Shown here: piece after piece, positions 1-6,000 of the stretch
How positions within the stretch are numbered: the first letter of the stretch is position 1
How the letters are laid out: every line of letters starts with the position of its first letter
Origin: an uncultured bacterium
GTDB lineage: Bacteria > Verrucomicrobiota > Verrucomicrobiia > Verrucomicrobiales > DEV007
Assembly: GCA_963977015.1 (NCBI GenBank)
Contig: CAXBMO010000032.1
Coordinates: forward strand, 1 to 58,898
DNA: 58,898 nt
Direction: 5' to 3'
Position numbers: made by a program

Positions 1-3000
1 AAACAGTCCAGCCAGAAACAGTCCAGCCAGAAACAGTCCAGCCAGAAACAGTCCAGCCAGAAACAGTCCAACCAGAAACAGTCCAACCAGAAATGGGCTG
101 AAAGCCCAACCGCGCAAAGCACAGGGTTTCAACCCTGTGTCAATGAATCCCAAACGGGATGCGGCCTGAATGGCCGCCCGCAGTCGCCCGATCAACCCCA
201 AAGATACCGCTCATCAAAATCGACTTGATACTTCTTCAAGAACTTCAGGTATTCCTCCTGAAAGGTGGTGACCTTGTGATGTTCTTTCTGGTTTCGAAGA
301 TAGCCCATCGCGACGTCAAGATCGGGCGGACTAACGCTGAACCAGCCATACCCCACCTGCCACGCAAACTTCGGACGATCTGAAAAGGTCGAATTGATCC
401 AACGCGACGAGTCGCCTTTCAGTTGGCTCATGAATTCCTGGTCCGCGACCATTTTGGACTCCCTGATCAAGAGGTGGACATGATCCGGCATTCCACCAAT
501 TTCGAGAAGACTCCCTTCCAGCCGTCGGATGATTCCGCCCATGTATTCGTACAACCTGGACTCGATTTCACCAGTAATCATCGGTTCCCGATTCTTCGTG
601 GAGAACACGATGTGTCCATAGGTGCAGTGTAGTGACTGTGGCATGGTTGATGATGATTGGTCGACTGCTGGCGACCTGTCAGGCCGCGATCTTTGCTGAA
701 TCCGATTTCACAGGGTTGAAACCCTGTGCTTTGTGCGGATGGGCTTTCAGCCCATCATTGCCTAACGCTACTTCCTGGTCCCGCAGGATGCAACTGCCTT
801 GGTTTTTGCCGAAAGTAAATGGCGGCGAACCTGTTTACGCAGGCCCGCCGCCGGGGTTGAAGGTTCCGATTAAAGTTCCATCGCTTCGATTTGATGGAGA
901 AGCGCGCTCTTGTCCTTTTCGAGGAACATGAGCGTTTCCATCGTCTTATCCGAAAAGCCTGCGAGCGCGTAAACGCCGCGTTCCGGAAATTGAAGCGATC
1001 CGTAACCAGCCAGATCAAAGCTGTAGACACGAGGACGGTTTCCCGCCTTCTTGACATAAGCTTCGAAGCTTTCGGTTGGCGTATAATATCCCATCCAGCC
1101 CTGCATATCAGAGAGGATAACGACGCGATCGTAAGCCTTCCGAGCCGTTTGGAAGATCGCGTGGAAGTTGGTTCCGGCGAACCGGGCCTTTTCTTCCATG
1201 CGTTGCGCCAGACTCAAGGTGCTATCATCACGGTTGAAGGTCTTGAACTCGGCGATATCGCTGAAGAGCATGAGATCCGCATCGTTGGTCTTGTAAAGGA
1301 CCGATGCAAAGAGCGATCCGATCTTGATCGGATTTCCATGCATGGATCCGGAACTATCCAGCGCGATCAACGTACGACCTTCGAGCACCGGAACATTCTC
1401 CAATGCAAGATCGACAGCCTTACTGAGCGCACGAATCACCTTTTGGCGATTTGGCAAATCAGTCGCCTGTTCCACGGCATCCAGAGCGGTGCGGAAGCGG
1501 AACGGCAGCACGAGCGACTTGCGGATCAACCGCGGATCCTGCAGCAACGCAAGCGCGTCATCGACGACGTCCGGAGACTGTTCGAGGATGTTGCGCAGGT
1601 TGCGAAGCAGCGCGAAGTATCCGATCTTGCGACTACGAATGAGGTCCGCCCAGGCTCCCGCCTTACGACCAGCCTTGTCTTCGGCATTCTCCGCTTGTTG
1701 ACCAGCCTGCGTCAGCTTGGTTTCCCAGGTTTCCGCCGGCTGAAGCGTTCCCGCCATCAACTGCCCCAAAGCTTGGGTGTGCGGAGGGTGAAGCAGGTTC
1801 ACCGCATCCACCAGCTTGAGTTCAGCACCTTCGCGCCGGTACTTGGCCAGTTGGTAGGCATCGAACCGGGTCAGGGCTTGGCCCAATCCCTTCTTGAGAG
1901 AGTTTGGCAAGGGCTTTCCATGGACCGCCATGTGGTAGGCCAGGATTTCGAGAACGTCATCAACGCGGTAGACCACGCGATCGAAGAAGCGACGCGTCCA
2001 ATCGGCACCCTTGACCTGGTGCGCCAGTTCCCCGGCGACCAAGTGGCTGACCGAACGCATCCCTGCTTCACGACGAGCATAAAGCGCCGCCTTCGCGACA
2101 AAAGGCTTGTCGTTGATCTCGCGGATCAGTTCCTGGAGCCGCTTTGCGGAATCACCCGCCTTGCGGTAGTACTGGTTTTCCAGGAAACAGGTGAGGAGCA
2201 TGGTCACCAGTTCGAGCTTGGCGCTCTGGGTGAAGGCCTCGCCACCTGCCAGGTTGATGGTTGTCGATTCTGTTTGCTTTTGTCTTTTCAGATTGAACTT
2301 CATGAGGTGGTCGGACCTCCTTTCTAGTTAGGGTTGTTGGAAAACTCCCTTCGCGAGCAACGAAGGAAGAAGTTGAGAAAGGATCGGAGAGAAAACCGGT
2401 CGGGGTAATAGCTCACCCAATGTGGATGAATTCGTTTAACAGACGAAGGAACCCCAACCTCACTACTCCGAAATGGGTGGAGGGAAAGGTCACTCTGGAG
2501 AATGCCGGAAGGAGACACAATACCGTGCTCTACCAACTGAGCTATCTCCCAAGAACCTTGGGAGAGTGGGACTCGAACCCACGACCACGCGCGTCGAAAG
2601 CGAAGGAACTCCTCGCCTCACTGCCAGAGTGATTTTATTTCCCAGGAAAGAGGTCACGCGAAGAATAGTGAACCGGGCAAAGTTGTCCGGTCCAAAAAGG
2701 CGGACCGGGCAGGAGTTGAACCTACTAATCTGAGCGCGTCAGACGTACACCGAAGTATCCCAGATTCTCGCTATCGCGTGTTTTAAAAAAGGCTGAGCAT
2801 CCGAGCATGGATTCGAACCATGATTCTCGCCTTCAAAGGGCGATGTCCTTCCGTTAGACGACTCGGATGAAAGAAGAAAAATCGGTCTGGAAGGACTTGC
2901 ACCCTCAACCTGCCGGGTAAGAACCGGATGCTCTCCTAACTTGAGCTACAGACCGTTGTCGTAGCCACGATTGGTAATCGTGGTATGAATTCGAGTGCCA

Positions 3001-6000
3001 CTCGAATCTACAAAGGCGGAGCTTTGAGGACTTGCACCCCATGCCTCGTTTTCGCGAGGCACCATTCGTTTAGCAAACGACTCCGACACGCTTGTTCGGT
3101 TAAAACTCCAATCGAAATACCAAGTGCCCGTAGCAGGATTTGCACCTGCACTGAACCGCTTTTGAGTCGGCTGCCTCTGCTGTTGGGCTATACGGGCGTT
3201 TCGTTGCAAAGAAGTGCTCACGGAAGGATTCGCACCTTCAACTCCTCGGTTTTAAGTCGAGTGCCTCTGCTCTTGGGCCACGTGAGCCTGCTCATTCGTC
3301 GACCCGGTGGGAATCGCACCCACGTCCTCTCGCTTATAAGGCGAGCGCTCTCACTGCGCCTGAGCTACGGGTCAAAAGGTAGAACGGTACCCACGACAGG
3401 ATTTGCACCTGCAACCTTCCGCTTCTAAAACGGACGCCTCTGCTATTGGGCTACGTGGGCCAATGTCAATTTGATGAACGTTCCACCGGTCGGTGTCGCA
3501 CCGACATGGTCTCCTTTACGAGAGGAGTGCATTGCTGACTTCTGCCACGGTGGATAAATGGAGTTTGTAGGCACTCCCGGTAGGACTCGAACCTACAACC
3601 TGATGCTTCGAAGGCACCCGCTCTTCCAATTGAGCTACAGGAGCGAAAAGAAATCTAATCAATACGGGATGGAGGATTCGAACCCCTCGACAGCCAACCC
3701 ACAGTTTATGGTCGACACGTTAGAAGCATGTGGTGGGAACATCCCGCGTAGCCACGACTGGTAGTCGTGGTTTGAAATTCGAGTCCCACTCGAATCTACG
3801 ACTAAAAAAATAGGGGCTGAAGGTAACGCTCCCTCGTCTCCTGTGTGTAAAACAGGCGTCCTACTATTGAACGAAGCCCCCATCACTATGATCATGTGAG
3901 GAAGTATCCCGGGAGGGATTTGCACCCCCAACCTCTGCGCACTCAACACAGCGCCTCTGCTGATTGGGCTACCGGGACATTGGGGCCAACGGCGAGTCTC
4001 TCACTCGCATCTTCCGACTTACAAGGTCGGCGCACTTCTCTGCCACGCTGGCGTCTCAAAAGAAAGCGGTGCGCCGTGCCGGTGCTGCCCCGGCTCCTCC
4101 TGTTTGGAAGACAGACGTCCTAGCTGGTAGACGAACAGCGCTTCAAGGTGAAAGAATGCCCGTGCGGGAATCGCACCCGCCACACTCTGGGTTGCAACCA
4201 GGCCGGTTCACTAGCTCCGGTCACGGGCGTCTTCCGAGAAAGGGTTGATCGACGGGATTTGCACCCGCACCGCAACCTTCACAGGGTCGAATGCTAACAT
4301 TTACACTACGATCAACATCTCTGGATTCAATACCACTACCAAGAGTCCCCCCGGTGGGTAACGCTCCCACTTCTGCGGTTTAAAAGACCGCTGCATCACT
4401 TTAATGCTTCGAGGGAAGAAGTGATGGATTTCTACCTATCCCCGCCAGGATTTGCACCTGATCCGACGCCTTCGCACGACGCCATGCTTCTCTTACACTA
4501 CAGGGACAACTCCATTCGCTACCGCCAAAACGCCTCATGCCGGTTACGCTCCGACTCAACCTGTTCGACAGACAGGCAGGCTACTATTACATCAATGAGG
4601 CTTGTTGAAGAAGTGGCTGGCTCCGGAATTGCACCGGGCTCTCGTCGCCTTCAACGACACGCTAATCTGTCTCAGCTATCCAGCCTTTGAATTCCCGAAA
4701 TCGTCCTGGATGGTAACGCTCCACCGTCTACCGGTTATCAACCGGTTGCTCTGCTTTTGAGCTACAGGACGCGAAAGAAAGGCACCTCCGCTTGGACTCG
4801 AACCAAGCTCGCGAGGCTTAACAGGCCTGCTGCACACCCGGTGCATTCGAAGGTCAAAGAAGACTCGGGGGCGGGAATCGAACCCGCGTGAAAGGCGGCT
4901 TATGAGGCCCCTTCGAGACGCCAACGCTCTCCCCGAAGAATGGAAATGTTCGAACCAAGATACGGGCCACGGAGGTCCTGCCCCCCAAACGCAGGACTAC
5001 TGCGTTCAATCCGTTTTCAAGACGGTTCCGGCACGCTTGTCCGGTTCGGGACCCATGTCTCTTTGGTTGTGAAAGGTAGGTCCTGGTGGAATCGCACCAC
5101 GCGTCGACTTTCGGCTTCTTTTATGACAACGGTTTTACAGACCGCCAGCCGAGGCAGGACCTATGTGAAAGAAATTGGCAAGGCGTGGGGGAATTGAACC
5201 CGCCGTTCCCAGACTGAAAACCTGGTGTCCTAGCCATTAGACGAACGCCTCATTTGGAAAAATGGAAATGGGAGGTCCTGGTAACGCTCCAGGCATCCAG
5301 GGTTATGAGCCCCGGGGCAGAACTTTCTGACCTCCAATCTGCTGATTGCGTCGCGGTGGTAGGACTCGCACCTACTTCCTGAGACTTCCAAGGTCCCTAT
5401 CTCGACTACTTCGACCTCACCGCGAAAACTGGTATGGAGACACTCGGTAACGCTCCGAGTCCTGCTGCTTGCAAGGCAGCCGTGCTATCTTTTATCACTA
5501 TGCCCCCAAAGAATGGCAGACTGCGAGAGAATCGAACTCTCTAAGCGCAAGGTTTGGAATCTTGCCGCGACACCCACTCGCCGACAGTCTGCATTGATAC
5601 TTCTTTCCACAATTCTCTGAAGCATGAAGGGAACTTCCAAGCCTGACGATTCATCACGGATTCTTCACGCGTGAACCCATGTGATTTAGAAGCGGCATGC
5701 TGTTGAGCGCGCCGCCGTTTCAATATTTGGATTTGGGTTCCGGGAAGAGGAAGGATGGAATCGAACTGATGATCCGTTCTACCTTCGCTTCAGAGAAAGA
5801 CGAACACCGTTACCGATCGTTACTCGGTAGCCGCAGGTTTTCACAGACGGACGTTTCGGTGTCTAACAGGCACACCTCCCTTACATAGAAGCCTCTTGGG
5901 TTGCCATTCCCAAGAGACAAACACTTTCCGTAACACGATTCGAAAATGGTGTGATCCGGTTGACCAAGTTGAAGACTTGTATAAATTAGAAACTTGTAGG

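Follow-up and report, generated by a model that had tools for sequence, protein, structure and literature searches.

An uncultured bacterium of the verrucomicrobial lineage DEV007 carries, beside its Ro60 gene, a packed array of extra tRNA genes with unusual elbows, raising the question of whether these are working tRNAs and, if so, what an altered elbow would be good for. The window analysed here (a contig stretch of 58,898 nucleotides) was compared with our own sets of 21 rsr loci and 160 viral loci. Our preferred reading, to which we give a probability of about 0.5, is that the array encodes functional phage-type elongator tRNAs, charged by the host, in which an A18·G55 swap is kept to make the pool insensitive to some factor or distinguishable by it.

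The tRNA array and its Ro60 neighborhood

About 26 supernumerary tRNA genes, with anticodons for 18 amino acids, adjoin the Ro60 gene; they lie on the minus strand, and a YrlA-like Y RNA and rsr follow downstream (Table 1). Default aragorn called 18 of them and relaxed aragorn 26, five members being detected only at the relaxed threshold. Most do not encode CCA; D-arms are weak in Met 4862 and Met 5268, and Thr-UGU has A56. The YrlA-like Y RNA is built from a terminal stem, a T-arm (UUCGA), a closed acceptor-like hairpin and a D-arm (GG). We read the array as a probable extra elongator set of phage type, lying head-to-tail with the Y RNA and rsr in a putatively co-transcribed unit that probably ends at the hairpin 3′ of rsr. 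An IS200-type transposase also adjoins rsr.

Table 1. Array members and neighboring features, in window coordinates
Feature	Position	Strand	Characteristics	Support
Terminator-like hairpin	821..852	-	13 bp, 10 GC, directly 3′ of rsr stop codon	consensus scan only
rsr (Ro60 orthologue)	870..2303	-	477 aa	Pfam TROVE E 6e-21; vWA_Ro60 below cut-off
YrlA-like Y RNA	2491..2631	-	canonical elbow	Rfam YrlA 39.6 bits (2524-2589), under gathering score 69
tRNA-Gln(UUG)	2797..2868	-	canonical GG / UUC elbow	aragorn
tRNA-Lys(CUU)	2882..2955	-	A18 / UGCAAGU	aragorn
tRNA-Ser(GCU)	3015..3109	-	95 nt, long variable arm kept, T-loop UGCAAGU	relaxed aragorn only
tRNA-Leu(CAA)	3124..3197	-	class I (5-nt variable loop), A18 / UGCAAAU, A73	aragorn
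tRNA-Leu(UAA)	3214..3287	-	class I, A18 / UGCGAAU, A73	aragorn
tRNA-Ile(UAU)	3298..3374	-	UGCGAUU	aragorn
tRNA-Leu(UAG)	3386..3460	-	class I, A18 / UGCAAAU, G1·U72, A73	aragorn
tRNA-Thr(CGU)	3480..3554	-	UGCGACA	aragorn
tRNA-Arg(UCG)	3570..3644	-	canonical elbow	aragorn
tRNA-Val(UAC)	3810..3882	-	A18 / AGCGUUA (A54, G55, U58)	Rfam tRNA 47.7 bits; relaxed aragorn
tRNA-Leu(GAG)	3904..3978	-	class I, A18 / UGCAAAU, G1·U72, A73	aragorn
tRNA-Thr(UGU)	3981..4052	-	T-loop UGAGAGA (G55, A56)	aragorn
tRNA-Cys(GCA)	4154..4230	-	UGCGAUU	Rfam tRNA-Sec model 32.5 bits, below gathering score; relaxed aragorn
tRNA-His(GUG)	4242..4315	-	UGCAAAU, encoded G-1 and C73	aragorn
tRNA-Lys(UUU)	4345..4416	-	AGCGUUA	relaxed aragorn only
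tRNA-Arg(GCG)	4436..4508	-	UGCAAAU	Rfam tRNA 37.7 bits; relaxed aragorn
tRNA-Asp(GUC)	4531..4601	-	AGCGUAA	aragorn
tRNA-Phe(GAA)	4613..4685	-	UGCAAUU	relaxed aragorn only
tRNA-Ile(GAU)	4701..4771	-	AGCGUUA	aragorn; MFE fold is cloverleaf, z -4.6
tRNA-Asn(GUU)	4781..4854	-	canonical elbow	aragorn
tRNA-Met(CAU)-like	4862..4937	-	UUC T-loop, poor D-arm; not in L001 array	aragorn
tRNA-Glu(UUC)	5176..5251	-	canonical elbow	aragorn
tRNA-Met(CAU)-like	5268..5337	-	AGCGUUA, weak D-arm; 100% identical in L001	aragorn
tRNA-Pro(UGG)	5350..5424	-	UGCGAGU	Rfam tRNA 45 bits; relaxed aragorn
tRNA-Ala(UGC)	5434..5508	-	AGCGUUA, G3·U70, A73	Rfam tRNA 38.8 bits; relaxed aragorn
tRNA-Trp(CCA)	5514..5590	-	canonical elbow, array's first gene	aragorn

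Dozens of packed tRNA genes likewise make up the “tRNA array units” of Tran et al (2016, PMC4758250) and the “L-arrays” of PMC8421152; in passages of these papers such arrays are, like the one in the window, additional to a complete housekeeping set and horizontally spread, and the phyla listed as carrying them include Verrucomicrobia. The pairing of rsr with a tRNA-like YrlA alongside matches the Ro60–Y RNA modules described in passages of Chen et al (2014, PMC4201824), who treated matches spanning tandem tRNA genes as false positives and dropped them. Phages, too, are known to have Ro60 together with a Y RNA, and Ro60 is present in Thermus phage phiLo (passages of PMC12135203). Arrays adjoining rsr are not described in the passages of PMC4201824 and PMC12135203, nor do those of PMC8421152 mention rsr/YrlA linkage, G55, A18 or short tRNA-Leu (“T-loop” and “tRNALeu” occur 0 times). 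Among our 21 rsr loci, 13 have at least four adjoining tRNA genes.

Class-I leucine tRNAs

The four array tRNAs with Leu anticodons (CAA, UAA, UAG, and GAG) lack the long variable arm, as a preliminary description of this DNA had reported: aragorn gives them 74–75 nt and a 5-nt variable loop, whereas the five tRNA-Leu genes off this contig measure 82–85 nt. All four have a 3-bp D-stem and A73, and the Leu-type D-arm and A15:U48 are retained. The short tRNA-Leu is not peculiar to rsr-linked arrays; it is a member of a widespread family of phages and mobile arrays. Vibrio phage KVP40 tRNA-Leu-3 (78 nt) and two 75-nt tRNA-Leu of Gordonia phage Phendrix belong to the same family (76–81% identical to one viral member) and are annotated within tRNA clusters; we found no paper remarking on the missing arm. 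Unlike the window genes, the family members with a GG D-loop in alignment A1 all have the canonical UUC T-loop (44/44).

The four genes would represent a class-I family that arose by loss of the long arm, and they appear to retain the determinants of bacterial LeuRS (A73, A15:U48, and a 3-bp D-stem with a 10–11-nt D-loop); the genome has one LeuRS gene. Minimal arm-less tRNAs can be leucylated, and passages of PMC9976931 attribute this in Escherichia coli minimal and animal mitochondrial tRNA-Leu to A73 and the D/T hinge, not to the long arm or anticodon. Those molecules are engineered or organellar, whereas here a natural family of bacteria and phages is concerned, and G18:U55 itself matters for leucylation in that work, whereas the window tRNA-Leu have A18:G55.

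A probable exchange of the elbow contact

The contact between G18 and U55 at the tRNA elbow is near-universal. In the array, U54-G55-C56 was correctly noted beforehand in the four tRNA-Leu and four others (Lys-CUU, Ile-UAU, Thr-CGU, and His, all aragorn calls). It also occurs in Ser, Cys, Arg-GCG, Phe, and Pro, which are relaxed aragorn calls with Rfam matches for three of the five (that of Cys being to the tRNA-Sec model, below gathering score). Another six members have A54-G55-C56-G57-U58, and in Thr-UGU the bases are U54-G55-A56, bringing G55 to 20 of 26 members, the other six being canonical. The rest of the genome is, as claimed, free of G55 (0 of 41 aragorn calls, one of them a dubious “tRNA-???”), with U55 and a GG D-loop throughout. 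The preliminary description's counts over 80 loci could not be reproduced, and those below come from our own sets.

The D-loop changes with the T-loop. All six U55 members of the array have a GG D-loop; the G55 members have AG, with the exceptions of His (UG) and Thr-UGU, in which 18–19 are ambiguous. Among 703 distinct tRNAs, GG is found in 462 of 474 with U55 and is missing (A18-G19) in 191 of 220 with G55, the remaining 29 having mostly AGG or a stray GG beside an AG. In alignment A1 (65 tRNA-Leu), positions 18/55 read G/U 44 times, A/G 20 times and C/G once, with neither A/U nor G/G observed, and viral tRNA-Leu chosen by A18 alone have G55 in 15/15 cases; nine identical, odd “tcaa” tRNAs carry A18 together with U55. 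These covariation counts are inflated by kinship among the sequences, and the Leu-family tree has only two independent switches on supported branches (sign test p 0.5). Judged from these alignments, G55 is one half of a putative tertiary swap coupled to A18 and not an isolated oddity.

Structural precedent for such an exchange comes from riboswitches. G18 bonds Ψ55 in tRNA and intercalates between 57 and 58 (passages of PMC4810234 and PMC7912444), whereas the T-loops of FMN and cobalamin riboswitches are UGNRA in 88.7% of cases, and an adenosine intercalates between their positions 4 and 5; in tRNA T-loops, position 2 is U instead (passages of 10.1101/2022.12.26.521914). The array tRNAs share the pentamer U-G-N-R-A by sequence and, like the riboswitches of that study, have an adenosine placed to fill the space between loop positions 4 and 5, although the receptor is a riboswitch loop there and the D-loop here. 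The inner elbow contact would thus be swapped with compensation from G18·U55 to A18·G55, moving the T-loop from the tRNA type (UUCRA with intercalating G) to the riboswitch type (UGNRA with adenosine), while the outer face, G19:C56, would be unaltered; six members would additionally exchange U54·A58 for A54·U58.

The G55 class also fills large viral records: three of these have G55 in 32/35, 29/34, and 33/34 tRNAs. A Ro60 ORF and a YrlA-like match adjoin the array in a 275-kb viral record with terminal repeats. Ro60 beside G55 arrays is nevertheless not obligatory, TROVE being present in 3/5 G55-rich viral records, 0/6 further G55-holding records and 2/20 canonical ones. The canonical GG/UUC elbow is retained by YrlA, both in viral records and in the window, and by the initiator-like Met tRNAs. 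Each family within the G55 class keeps its own architecture (class-I Leu, long-arm Leu/Ser/Tyr, G-1 His, G3:U70 Ala), which favors parallel conversion over one common ancestor.

Could the swap be neutral? The tRNAs would then be functional, and A18:G55 a structurally equivalent, compensated exchange that arose by chance and spread through duplication, gene conversion and horizontal transfer of entire cassettes, marking ancestry and not function. UGNRA and adenosine make a generally good T-loop/receptor pair, so the swap may be cost-free; other elbow variants occur in phage arrays (A54:U58 in 16/703, A19:U56, C19:G56), which suggests relaxed constraint; some arrays are mixed (G55 in 4/11, 5/11, and 4/7 tRNAs); and the trait clusters by lineage (7/7 Verrucomicrobiota rsr arrays, 0 of the Bacteroidota ones). 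We nonetheless consider this serious alternative unlikely: each conversion takes two changes and passes through an intermediate that is presumably worse (the combinations G/G and A/U are never met in alignment A1), some 30 isoacceptors were converted in each of the three viral records while initiator-like Met and adjacent YrlA stayed canonical, and the family-specific architectures imply many parallel conversions.

Identity marks, conservation and possible use

The array members retain marks by which synthetases would recognize them. Discriminator N73 suits the amino acid of the anticodon in 133 of 179 G55-class tRNAs (label shuffles 80.6 ± 5.0, maximum 99), that is 74% against 90% (36/40) in housekeeping tRNAs, expected discriminators following E. 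coli rules and positions being aragorn parses. Within the class, A73 is found in 27/27 Leu, G3:U70 in 7/9 Ala, C1-G72 in 11/12 Pro, and U73 in 5/5 Cys; His G-1:C73 occurs in the window and in loci L001 and L002, and the window Ala has G3:U70. Anticodon loops retain U33 and a purine at 37. A search of five viral records found no class-Ia synthetase.

These marks bear on a further alternative, that the genes make tRNA-shaped RNAs acting outside translation as ligands, substrates or decoys, for instance of a Ro60–Y RNA–exonuclease particle or of tRNA-targeting toxins. The tight adjacency to rsr and YrlA in bacteria and viral records, the frequency of tRNA clusters at rsr loci noted above, the scarcity of CCA-encoding genes and the odd arms of several members fit such a role, as does the precedent of irregular polycistronic tRNAs that are charged yet unused in translation (passages of Mukai et al, PMC5389517). 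It is improbable, however, in view of an anticodon repertoire spanning 18 amino acids in the window and nearly all in the viral records, of a single body bearing four Leu anticodons, as an anticodon-blind synthetase requires, and of the retained identity marks and anticodon-loop residues; moreover, 23 of 26 array tRNAs of the Anabaena trn operon are charged in vivo under translational stress (passages of Santamaria-Gomez et al, 2021, PMC8421152).

Conservation supports the earlier claim that these are selected structures and not decayed pseudogenes. In a comparison with the array of a relative (L001; 84% identity in Rsr), identity is 91.1% over tRNA positions (1545/1696) and 58.9% over spacers (745/1264); the Y RNA is 92.2% identical, and non-canonical members reach 93–100%, except His (81%) and Thr-UGU (86%). 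In 65 distinct short tRNA-Leu, 98.2% of 1429 stem cells are paired, compared with 32–47% when the partner is slid, and both sides have changed in 16 of 22 pairs (424 cells); discriminators and the His and Ala identity marks point the same way. The reading that a mobile tRNA array is decaying here and has left this remnant, its odd loops mere damage, would suit the transposase beside rsr, the one member absent in the relative and the weak arms, but is contradicted by the contrast between tRNAs and spacers, the near-identity of the non-canonical members, the paired tertiary changes and the compensated stems, and is very improbable.

If the array does supply functional phage-type elongators, its members would be real folded tRNAs charged by host synthetases and used in translation. 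Because of the A18·G55 swap, neither Ψ55 nor Gm18 would be possible on them, so that at the elbow the pool would differ chemically from the housekeeping tRNAs. Mutations in the anticodon loop let phage tRNAs escape the anticodon nucleases of their hosts (van den Berg et al, 2023, PMC10264068), tRNAs that likewise differ from those of the host at a site read by a host factor, although that work deals with the anticodon loop (in it, “T-loop” is found 0 times) and the window with the elbow. By retaining the swap, the pool may have become insensitive to, or distinguishable by, a factor that reads the canonical 18–55 elbow, for which a modification enzyme, a tRNase or other defense factor, or the Ro60–YrlA particle would be candidates.

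Layout of the array locus

The window contig belongs to a 6.9-Mb genome and carries a tRNA array followed, in transcription order, by a YrlA-like Y RNA and by rsr, which encodes a Ro60 orthologue. Default aragorn settings recognize 18 tRNAs in the array, Rfam tRNA models give five matches beyond these, and relaxed aragorn settings add eight members (Ser, Val, Cys, Lys-UUU, Arg-GCG, Phe, Pro, and Ala), bringing the total to 26 genes within 2.8 kb, with anticodons for 18 amino acids. With the relaxed calls, the array falls within the definition of a tRNA array unit or L-array given in the abstract of PMC4758250 (at least 20 tRNA genes at two or more per kb), a number that the 18 default calls do not reach. 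Like such units, it supplements a full housekeeping set: elsewhere the genome holds 40 ordinary tRNAs, which together decode all amino acids, and one dubious call.

Features of the array locus, with coordinates on the window contig
Feature	Coordinates	Strand	Remarks
tRNA array	5590 to 2797	minus	first in transcription order
YrlA-like Y RNA	~2631-2491	minus	after array; Rfam 39.6 bits
rsr	2303-870	minus	TROVE domain, E 6e-21
Strong terminator-like hairpin	852-821	minus	follows rsr
IS200-like (Y1) transposase gene	192-644	minus	just downstream of rsr, near contig start
Acido-Lenti-1 RNA match	94-139	minus	Rfam 31.1 bits, under gathering score 37
tRNA-like fragment	2702-2765	minus	between tRNA-Gln and YrlA
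Two-hairpin element, first copy	2961-3011		between tRNA genes
Two-hairpin element, second copy	3749-3800		between tRNA genes
Possible tRNA-like gene	~4066-4141	minus	called by no tool
tRNA-Ile (UAU)	3298-3374	minus
tRNA-Leu (GAG)	3904-3978	minus
tRNA-Arg (GCG)	4436-4508	minus
tRNA missing in L001	4862-4937	minus

The YrlA-like match scores below the gathering score of 69. Dimeric tRNAs as the source of such matches, against which a passage of Chen et al (PMC4201824) warns, are an unlikely explanation here because the terminal stem, T-arm, closed acceptor-like hairpin, and D-arm are all visible in the sequence. A consensus scan of the minus strand found no sigma-70-like promoter ahead of the array; sigma-54-like sites gave two matches against 3.7 expected, neither of them upstream of the array. 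Short contigs of a relative (run X1, contigs only) cover the YrlA-like RNA and several tRNAs and are silent on transcription.

Three further elements lie within or beside the array. A two-hairpin element of ~50 nt occurs in two copies, the first of which looks inserted, as the contig of the relative lacks 55 nt there (2956-3012) and carries 16 different letters instead. By eye, a possible tRNA-like gene can be discerned, with an odd T-loop and an anticodon loop reading UCC (Gly); a repeat family groups its T-arm with AGCGUUA-class T-arms. Finally, a tRNA-like fragment whose UUCAA T-arm is followed by a hairpin may be a remnant or another Y RNA.

A paired exchange at the tRNA elbow

The array tRNAs retain the cloverleaf of canonical elongators (7-bp acceptor, 5-bp anticodon and T stems, 7-nt loops) but lack, in 20 of 26 members, the canonical G18 with U55 (the Psi55 site). 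The preliminary description had noted a U54-G55-C56 T-loop in four Leu tRNAs and several others; we find UGCRA in 13/26 members, UGAGA in one (Thr-UGU), AGCGUWA in six, and canonical UUCRA in the remaining six, such that the pentamer UGNRA fits 14/26 (the 13 UGCRA loops and Thr-UGU). G55 is thus present in 20/26, compared with U55 in all 41 tRNA calls elsewhere in the genome. The D-loop state follows the T-loop: GG is found in all six U55 members, and AG occupies the 18-19 place of the G55 members (A at the 18 place in 18/20) with the exceptions of His (UG) and Thr-UGU, where the place is unclear.

For a wider comparison, the housekeeping set was combined with the tRNAs of rsr and viral loci. 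Identical sequences were counted once, and locus L051, a duplicate of L006, and tRNAs lacking an aragorn-parsed 7-nt T-loop were omitted, giving 703 distinct tRNAs. Position 18 was assigned by a simple GG-or-AG rule because a "rightmost purine-G" rule mis-assigned canonical D-loops. GG accompanies U55 in 462/474 of these tRNAs, and G55 occurs without GG in 191/220, the other 29 being mostly AGG or a stray GG beside AG. An alignment of short Leu tRNAs (A1) gives the N18/N55 combinations G/U 44 times, A/G 20 times, and C/G once, with A/U and G/G both at zero. Selecting viral Leu-body tRNAs by A18 alone, blind to the T-loop (at least 118 stretches, 80 loci fetched), returned G55 in 15/15 of those with Leu anticodons among the fetched loci, and, in the same loci, nine identical copies of an odd "tcaa" tRNA that combines A18 with U55. 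This 75-nt tRNA (L068:1992-2066 and eight further viral loci) has the class-I Leu body, is the sole tRNA in each locus, and is read by aragorn with an 8-nt anticodon loop; it is perhaps a quadruplet tRNA or a suppressor, unless aragorn mis-parsed it.

Related sequences share their states. A Leu-family tree built without the two columns contains 15 changes, of which only two independent pairs fall on supported branches; this is not significant, so that within the Leu family the coupling is not supported by a phylogeny-aware test. The stronger argument for coupling is its breadth: the G55 class spans class-I Leu, long-arm Leu, Ser and Tyr, His with G-1, and Ala with G3:U70, and as each family keeps its own architecture within the class, the swap must have occurred many times in parallel. 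Read at the sequence level, G55 would be one half of a tertiary swap, G18.U55 to A18.G55.

Other contacts of the elbow vary separately. U54/A58 is found in 20/26 window members and A54/U58 in 6/26 (over the pooled 703: UA 674, AU 16, AA 5, CA 5, other 3), and in viral arrays the swap from U54.A58 to A54.U58 pairs freely with either 18/55 state (AUCGUUA with GG, AGCGUUA with AG). G19:C56 is unaltered by the 18/55 swap. In a few array tRNAs elsewhere, a T-loop UUUGAAU (U56) in tRNA-Arg is paired with a GA D-loop (A19), and UUGGAGU (G56) in a Leu tRNA with a GC D-loop (C19), implying that the outer G19:C56 is there swapped to A:U or C:G (loci L009:582, L070:2073, L109:1916, L212:300 and 961; L077:2107).

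In tRNA, passages of two reviews (PMC4810234, PMC7912444) describe G18 as intercalating between 57 and 58 and bonding Psi55, with G19:C56 forming the outer face. A preprint (10.1101/2022.12.26.521914) reports that 88.7% of FMN and cobalamin riboswitch T-loops read UGNRA, that the intercalating base, which inserts between loop positions 4 and 5, is nearly always an adenosine, and that a U at position 2 sets tRNA T-loops apart. UGCRA with A18 therefore amounts to the riboswitch-type combination carried inside a tRNA; the pentamer is shared, and the intercalating adenosine is present as a sequence signature, A at the 18 place. As TruB acts on U55 and TrmH on G18 (a passage of PMC7912444), the swapped tRNAs would offer neither enzyme a substrate and are predicted to carry no Psi55 or Gm18. 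Searches of one article library found no paper combining G55 and A18 with tRNA T-loop and D-loop and none with both U55G and G18A; for G55 with G18, the sole find was a tRNA-Pyl paper.

A relation to modification may extend to the anticodon. The array encodes Ile-UAU, Arg-GCG, and Leu-GAG; the housekeeping counterparts are CAU-type Ile, Arg-ACG, and Leu-AAG, anticodons that require base modification, and the array may be less reliant on modification enzymes here as well.

A short tRNA-Leu family and its identity marks

The four Leu genes of the array (CAA, UAA, UAG, and GAG), earlier described as lacking the long arm, are indeed 74-75 nt with a 5-nt variable loop, and genome calls bear out the 82-85 nt given for housekeeping tRNA-Leu. 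All four have a 3-bp D-stem, a common D-arm, and A73 (34/34 array Leu tRNAs examined carry A73). They match bacterial class II tRNA-Leu in the D-arm (3-bp stem, 10-11-nt loop, A14, A15:U48, purine-G at 18-19, N-A-G-A) but not in the long variable arm, which is missing from all four; long-arm Leu tRNAs are present in related arrays (f7). The array D-arm reads GCC-CAAYAGCAGA-GGC compared with GCG-GAAUUGGUAGA-CGC in the housekeeping genes, with A18 in place of G18.

The same body, with Leu anticodons, recurs in Bacteroidota arrays linked to rsr (three copies in L009 and one each in L046 and L050; D-arm GCC-CAA..GCAGA-GGC, U48, A73). Scanning viral contigs for the D-arm gave at least 122 stretches, and the 80 loci fetched hold 45 tRNAs with the pattern in 41 loci, 43 of them with Leu anticodons and all of 73-78 nt. 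Cultured phages have matching genes annotated as tRNA-Leu (one of 78 nt in KVP40, two of 75 nt in Gordonia phage Phendrix). The short Leu tRNAs are a widespread phage-type family; we found no paper discussing them in phage clusters, in a search of main article texts. Across the phylum, the A18-type Leu pattern occurs in 8/401 genomes, the seven outside the window genome being non-tRNA matches, and a control pattern is about as frequent.

The short Leu tRNAs number 67 distinct sequences, and alignment A1 contains all of these but two (L070 and L118), hence 65; the "tcaa" tRNAs, to which aragorn assigns no Leu anticodon, are also left out. Its stems are paired in 98.2% of 1429 cells, versus 32-47% with the partner slid, and both sides have changed at 16/22 pairs, the D-stem being invariant. 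Within this family, the tertiary set is likewise retained: T8, A14, and A15 are invariant, A15:U48 is found in 64/65, and G19:C56 and G53:C61 are each found in 65/65.

For E. coli leucylation, a passage of Giege and Eriani (PMC9976931) describes A73 as crucial, the anticodon and long arm as not crucial, and A15-U48, G18G19, and A20a as mattering, with arm-less minimal tRNAs still leucylated. The genome has a single LeuRS, and one Leu body bears four anticodons, as a synthetase blind to the anticodon would require. More generally, scored against E. coli discriminator rules, N73 fits the amino acid of the anticodon in 133/179 G55-class tRNAs (80.6 +/- 5.0 with labels shuffled, maximum 99), 67/91 U55 array tRNAs, and 36/40 housekeeping tRNAs. 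Individual marks are Leu A73 27/27, Ala G3:U70 7/9 (the window Ala has G3.U70), Pro C1-G72 11/12, and Cys U73 5/5; His has an encoded G-1 with C73 in the window, in L001 (the array locus of a relative), and in L002. On these marks, the array tRNAs look chargeable, and a non-translational role for the array RNAs is less likely than service in elongation. A dedicated synthetase did not appear in the search with PF00133 (class Ia), which matched 0/5 viral records.

Viral arrays, Ro60, and a possible meaning of the exchange

G55-rich arrays are found in five viral records, three of which have a TROVE match. One of these, a 275,101-bp record with direct terminal repeats and an estimated completeness of 100%, has G55 in 32/35 called tRNAs; its array adjoins a 558-aa ORF with TROVE and Ro60-vWA domains (23% identical to the window Rsr) and is accompanied by a YrlA-like match of 29.4 bits, below the gathering score. 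Two further records have G55 in 29/34 and 33/34 tRNAs. GG/UUC is kept by the initiator-like Met tRNAs of the three large records (1:72 mismatch, GGG:CCC in the anticodon stem), as it is by the YrlA-like RNAs of both the 275-kb record and the window. TROVE was not found in six further G55-holding viral records and lies beside canonical-elbow arrays in 2/20 records searched. With Terminase_6N and Terminase_6C matching 0/3 large records and Phage_sheath_1 giving a sub-threshold match (a ~925-aa ORF) in 3/3, their viral nature rests mainly on collection labels (terminal repeats and 100% completeness for one record). A search for G55 arrays in cultured phages, with 2.85 kb of locus L283 as the query, matched only single tRNAs in nine records.

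Among bacteria, 13/21 rsr loci have at least four tRNA genes beside rsr, and rsr itself occurs in only 5/401 sampled genomes of the phylum. An Aureispira contig (G401 C364; loci L009, L025, and L042) has two tandem TROVE genes, 48% and 41% identical to the window Rsr, directly after a 26-gene tRNA array.

We think that the array encodes functional, horizontally acquired elongator tRNAs with a putatively compensated elbow. The rsr-linked arrays are G55-dominated in all seven Verrucomicrobiota and canonical in Bacteroidota, and a serious rival reading holds that the swap is a neutral, lineage-bound variant. We favour the view that the swap was retained as it yields a pool that an elbow-reading factor would either overlook or distinguish from other tRNAs. 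Our reasons are that nearly all isoacceptors are converted and that YrlA and the initiators are left canonical. Decay of the array is contradicted by comparison with L001, a Verrucomicrobiales locus with the same array and an Rsr 84% identical: identity is 91.1% at tRNA positions (1545/1696, the tRNA missing from L001 being scored as 76 gaps) and 92.2% in YrlA (130/141), against 58.9% in spacers (745/1264), and non-canonical members are 93-100% identical save His (81%) and Thr-UGU (86%). Together with the compensated stems, this upholds the earlier proposal that orthologues keep these features as selected structures.

A more specific form of the elbow-reading view, to which we give roughly one chance in eight, is that the swap serves as a self/non-self mark. 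A phage, or a stressed host that domesticated the cassette, would elongate on a pool free of Psi55 and Gm18 and invisible to the elbow-reading factor; the co-encoded Ro60-YrlA, whose tRNA-like domain has a canonical elbow, would engage the same factor or help clear canonical tRNAs. The initiator, which reaches the ribosome by another route, would for that reason be spared.

According to passages of two reviews (PMC7912444, PMC4810234), Psi55 is universally conserved in tRNA and G18 highly so. Here, whole tRNA sets, for 18 amino acids in the window and almost all in the large viral records, would lack both through a clean paired change. They would constitute a natural experiment in tRNA architecture, suggesting that a T-loop module of UGNRA plus adenosine can stand in for the tRNA type, and an orthogonal pool at the elbow, probably closed to TruB (55) and TrmH (18). 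The short Leu family means that class-I tRNA-Leu is widespread outside organelles, and, with the elbow swap, is directly useful for engineering orthogonal tRNAs. For Ro60, whose bacterial role is poorly understood, the recurrence of these arrays beside its gene and a Y RNA provides a new setting.
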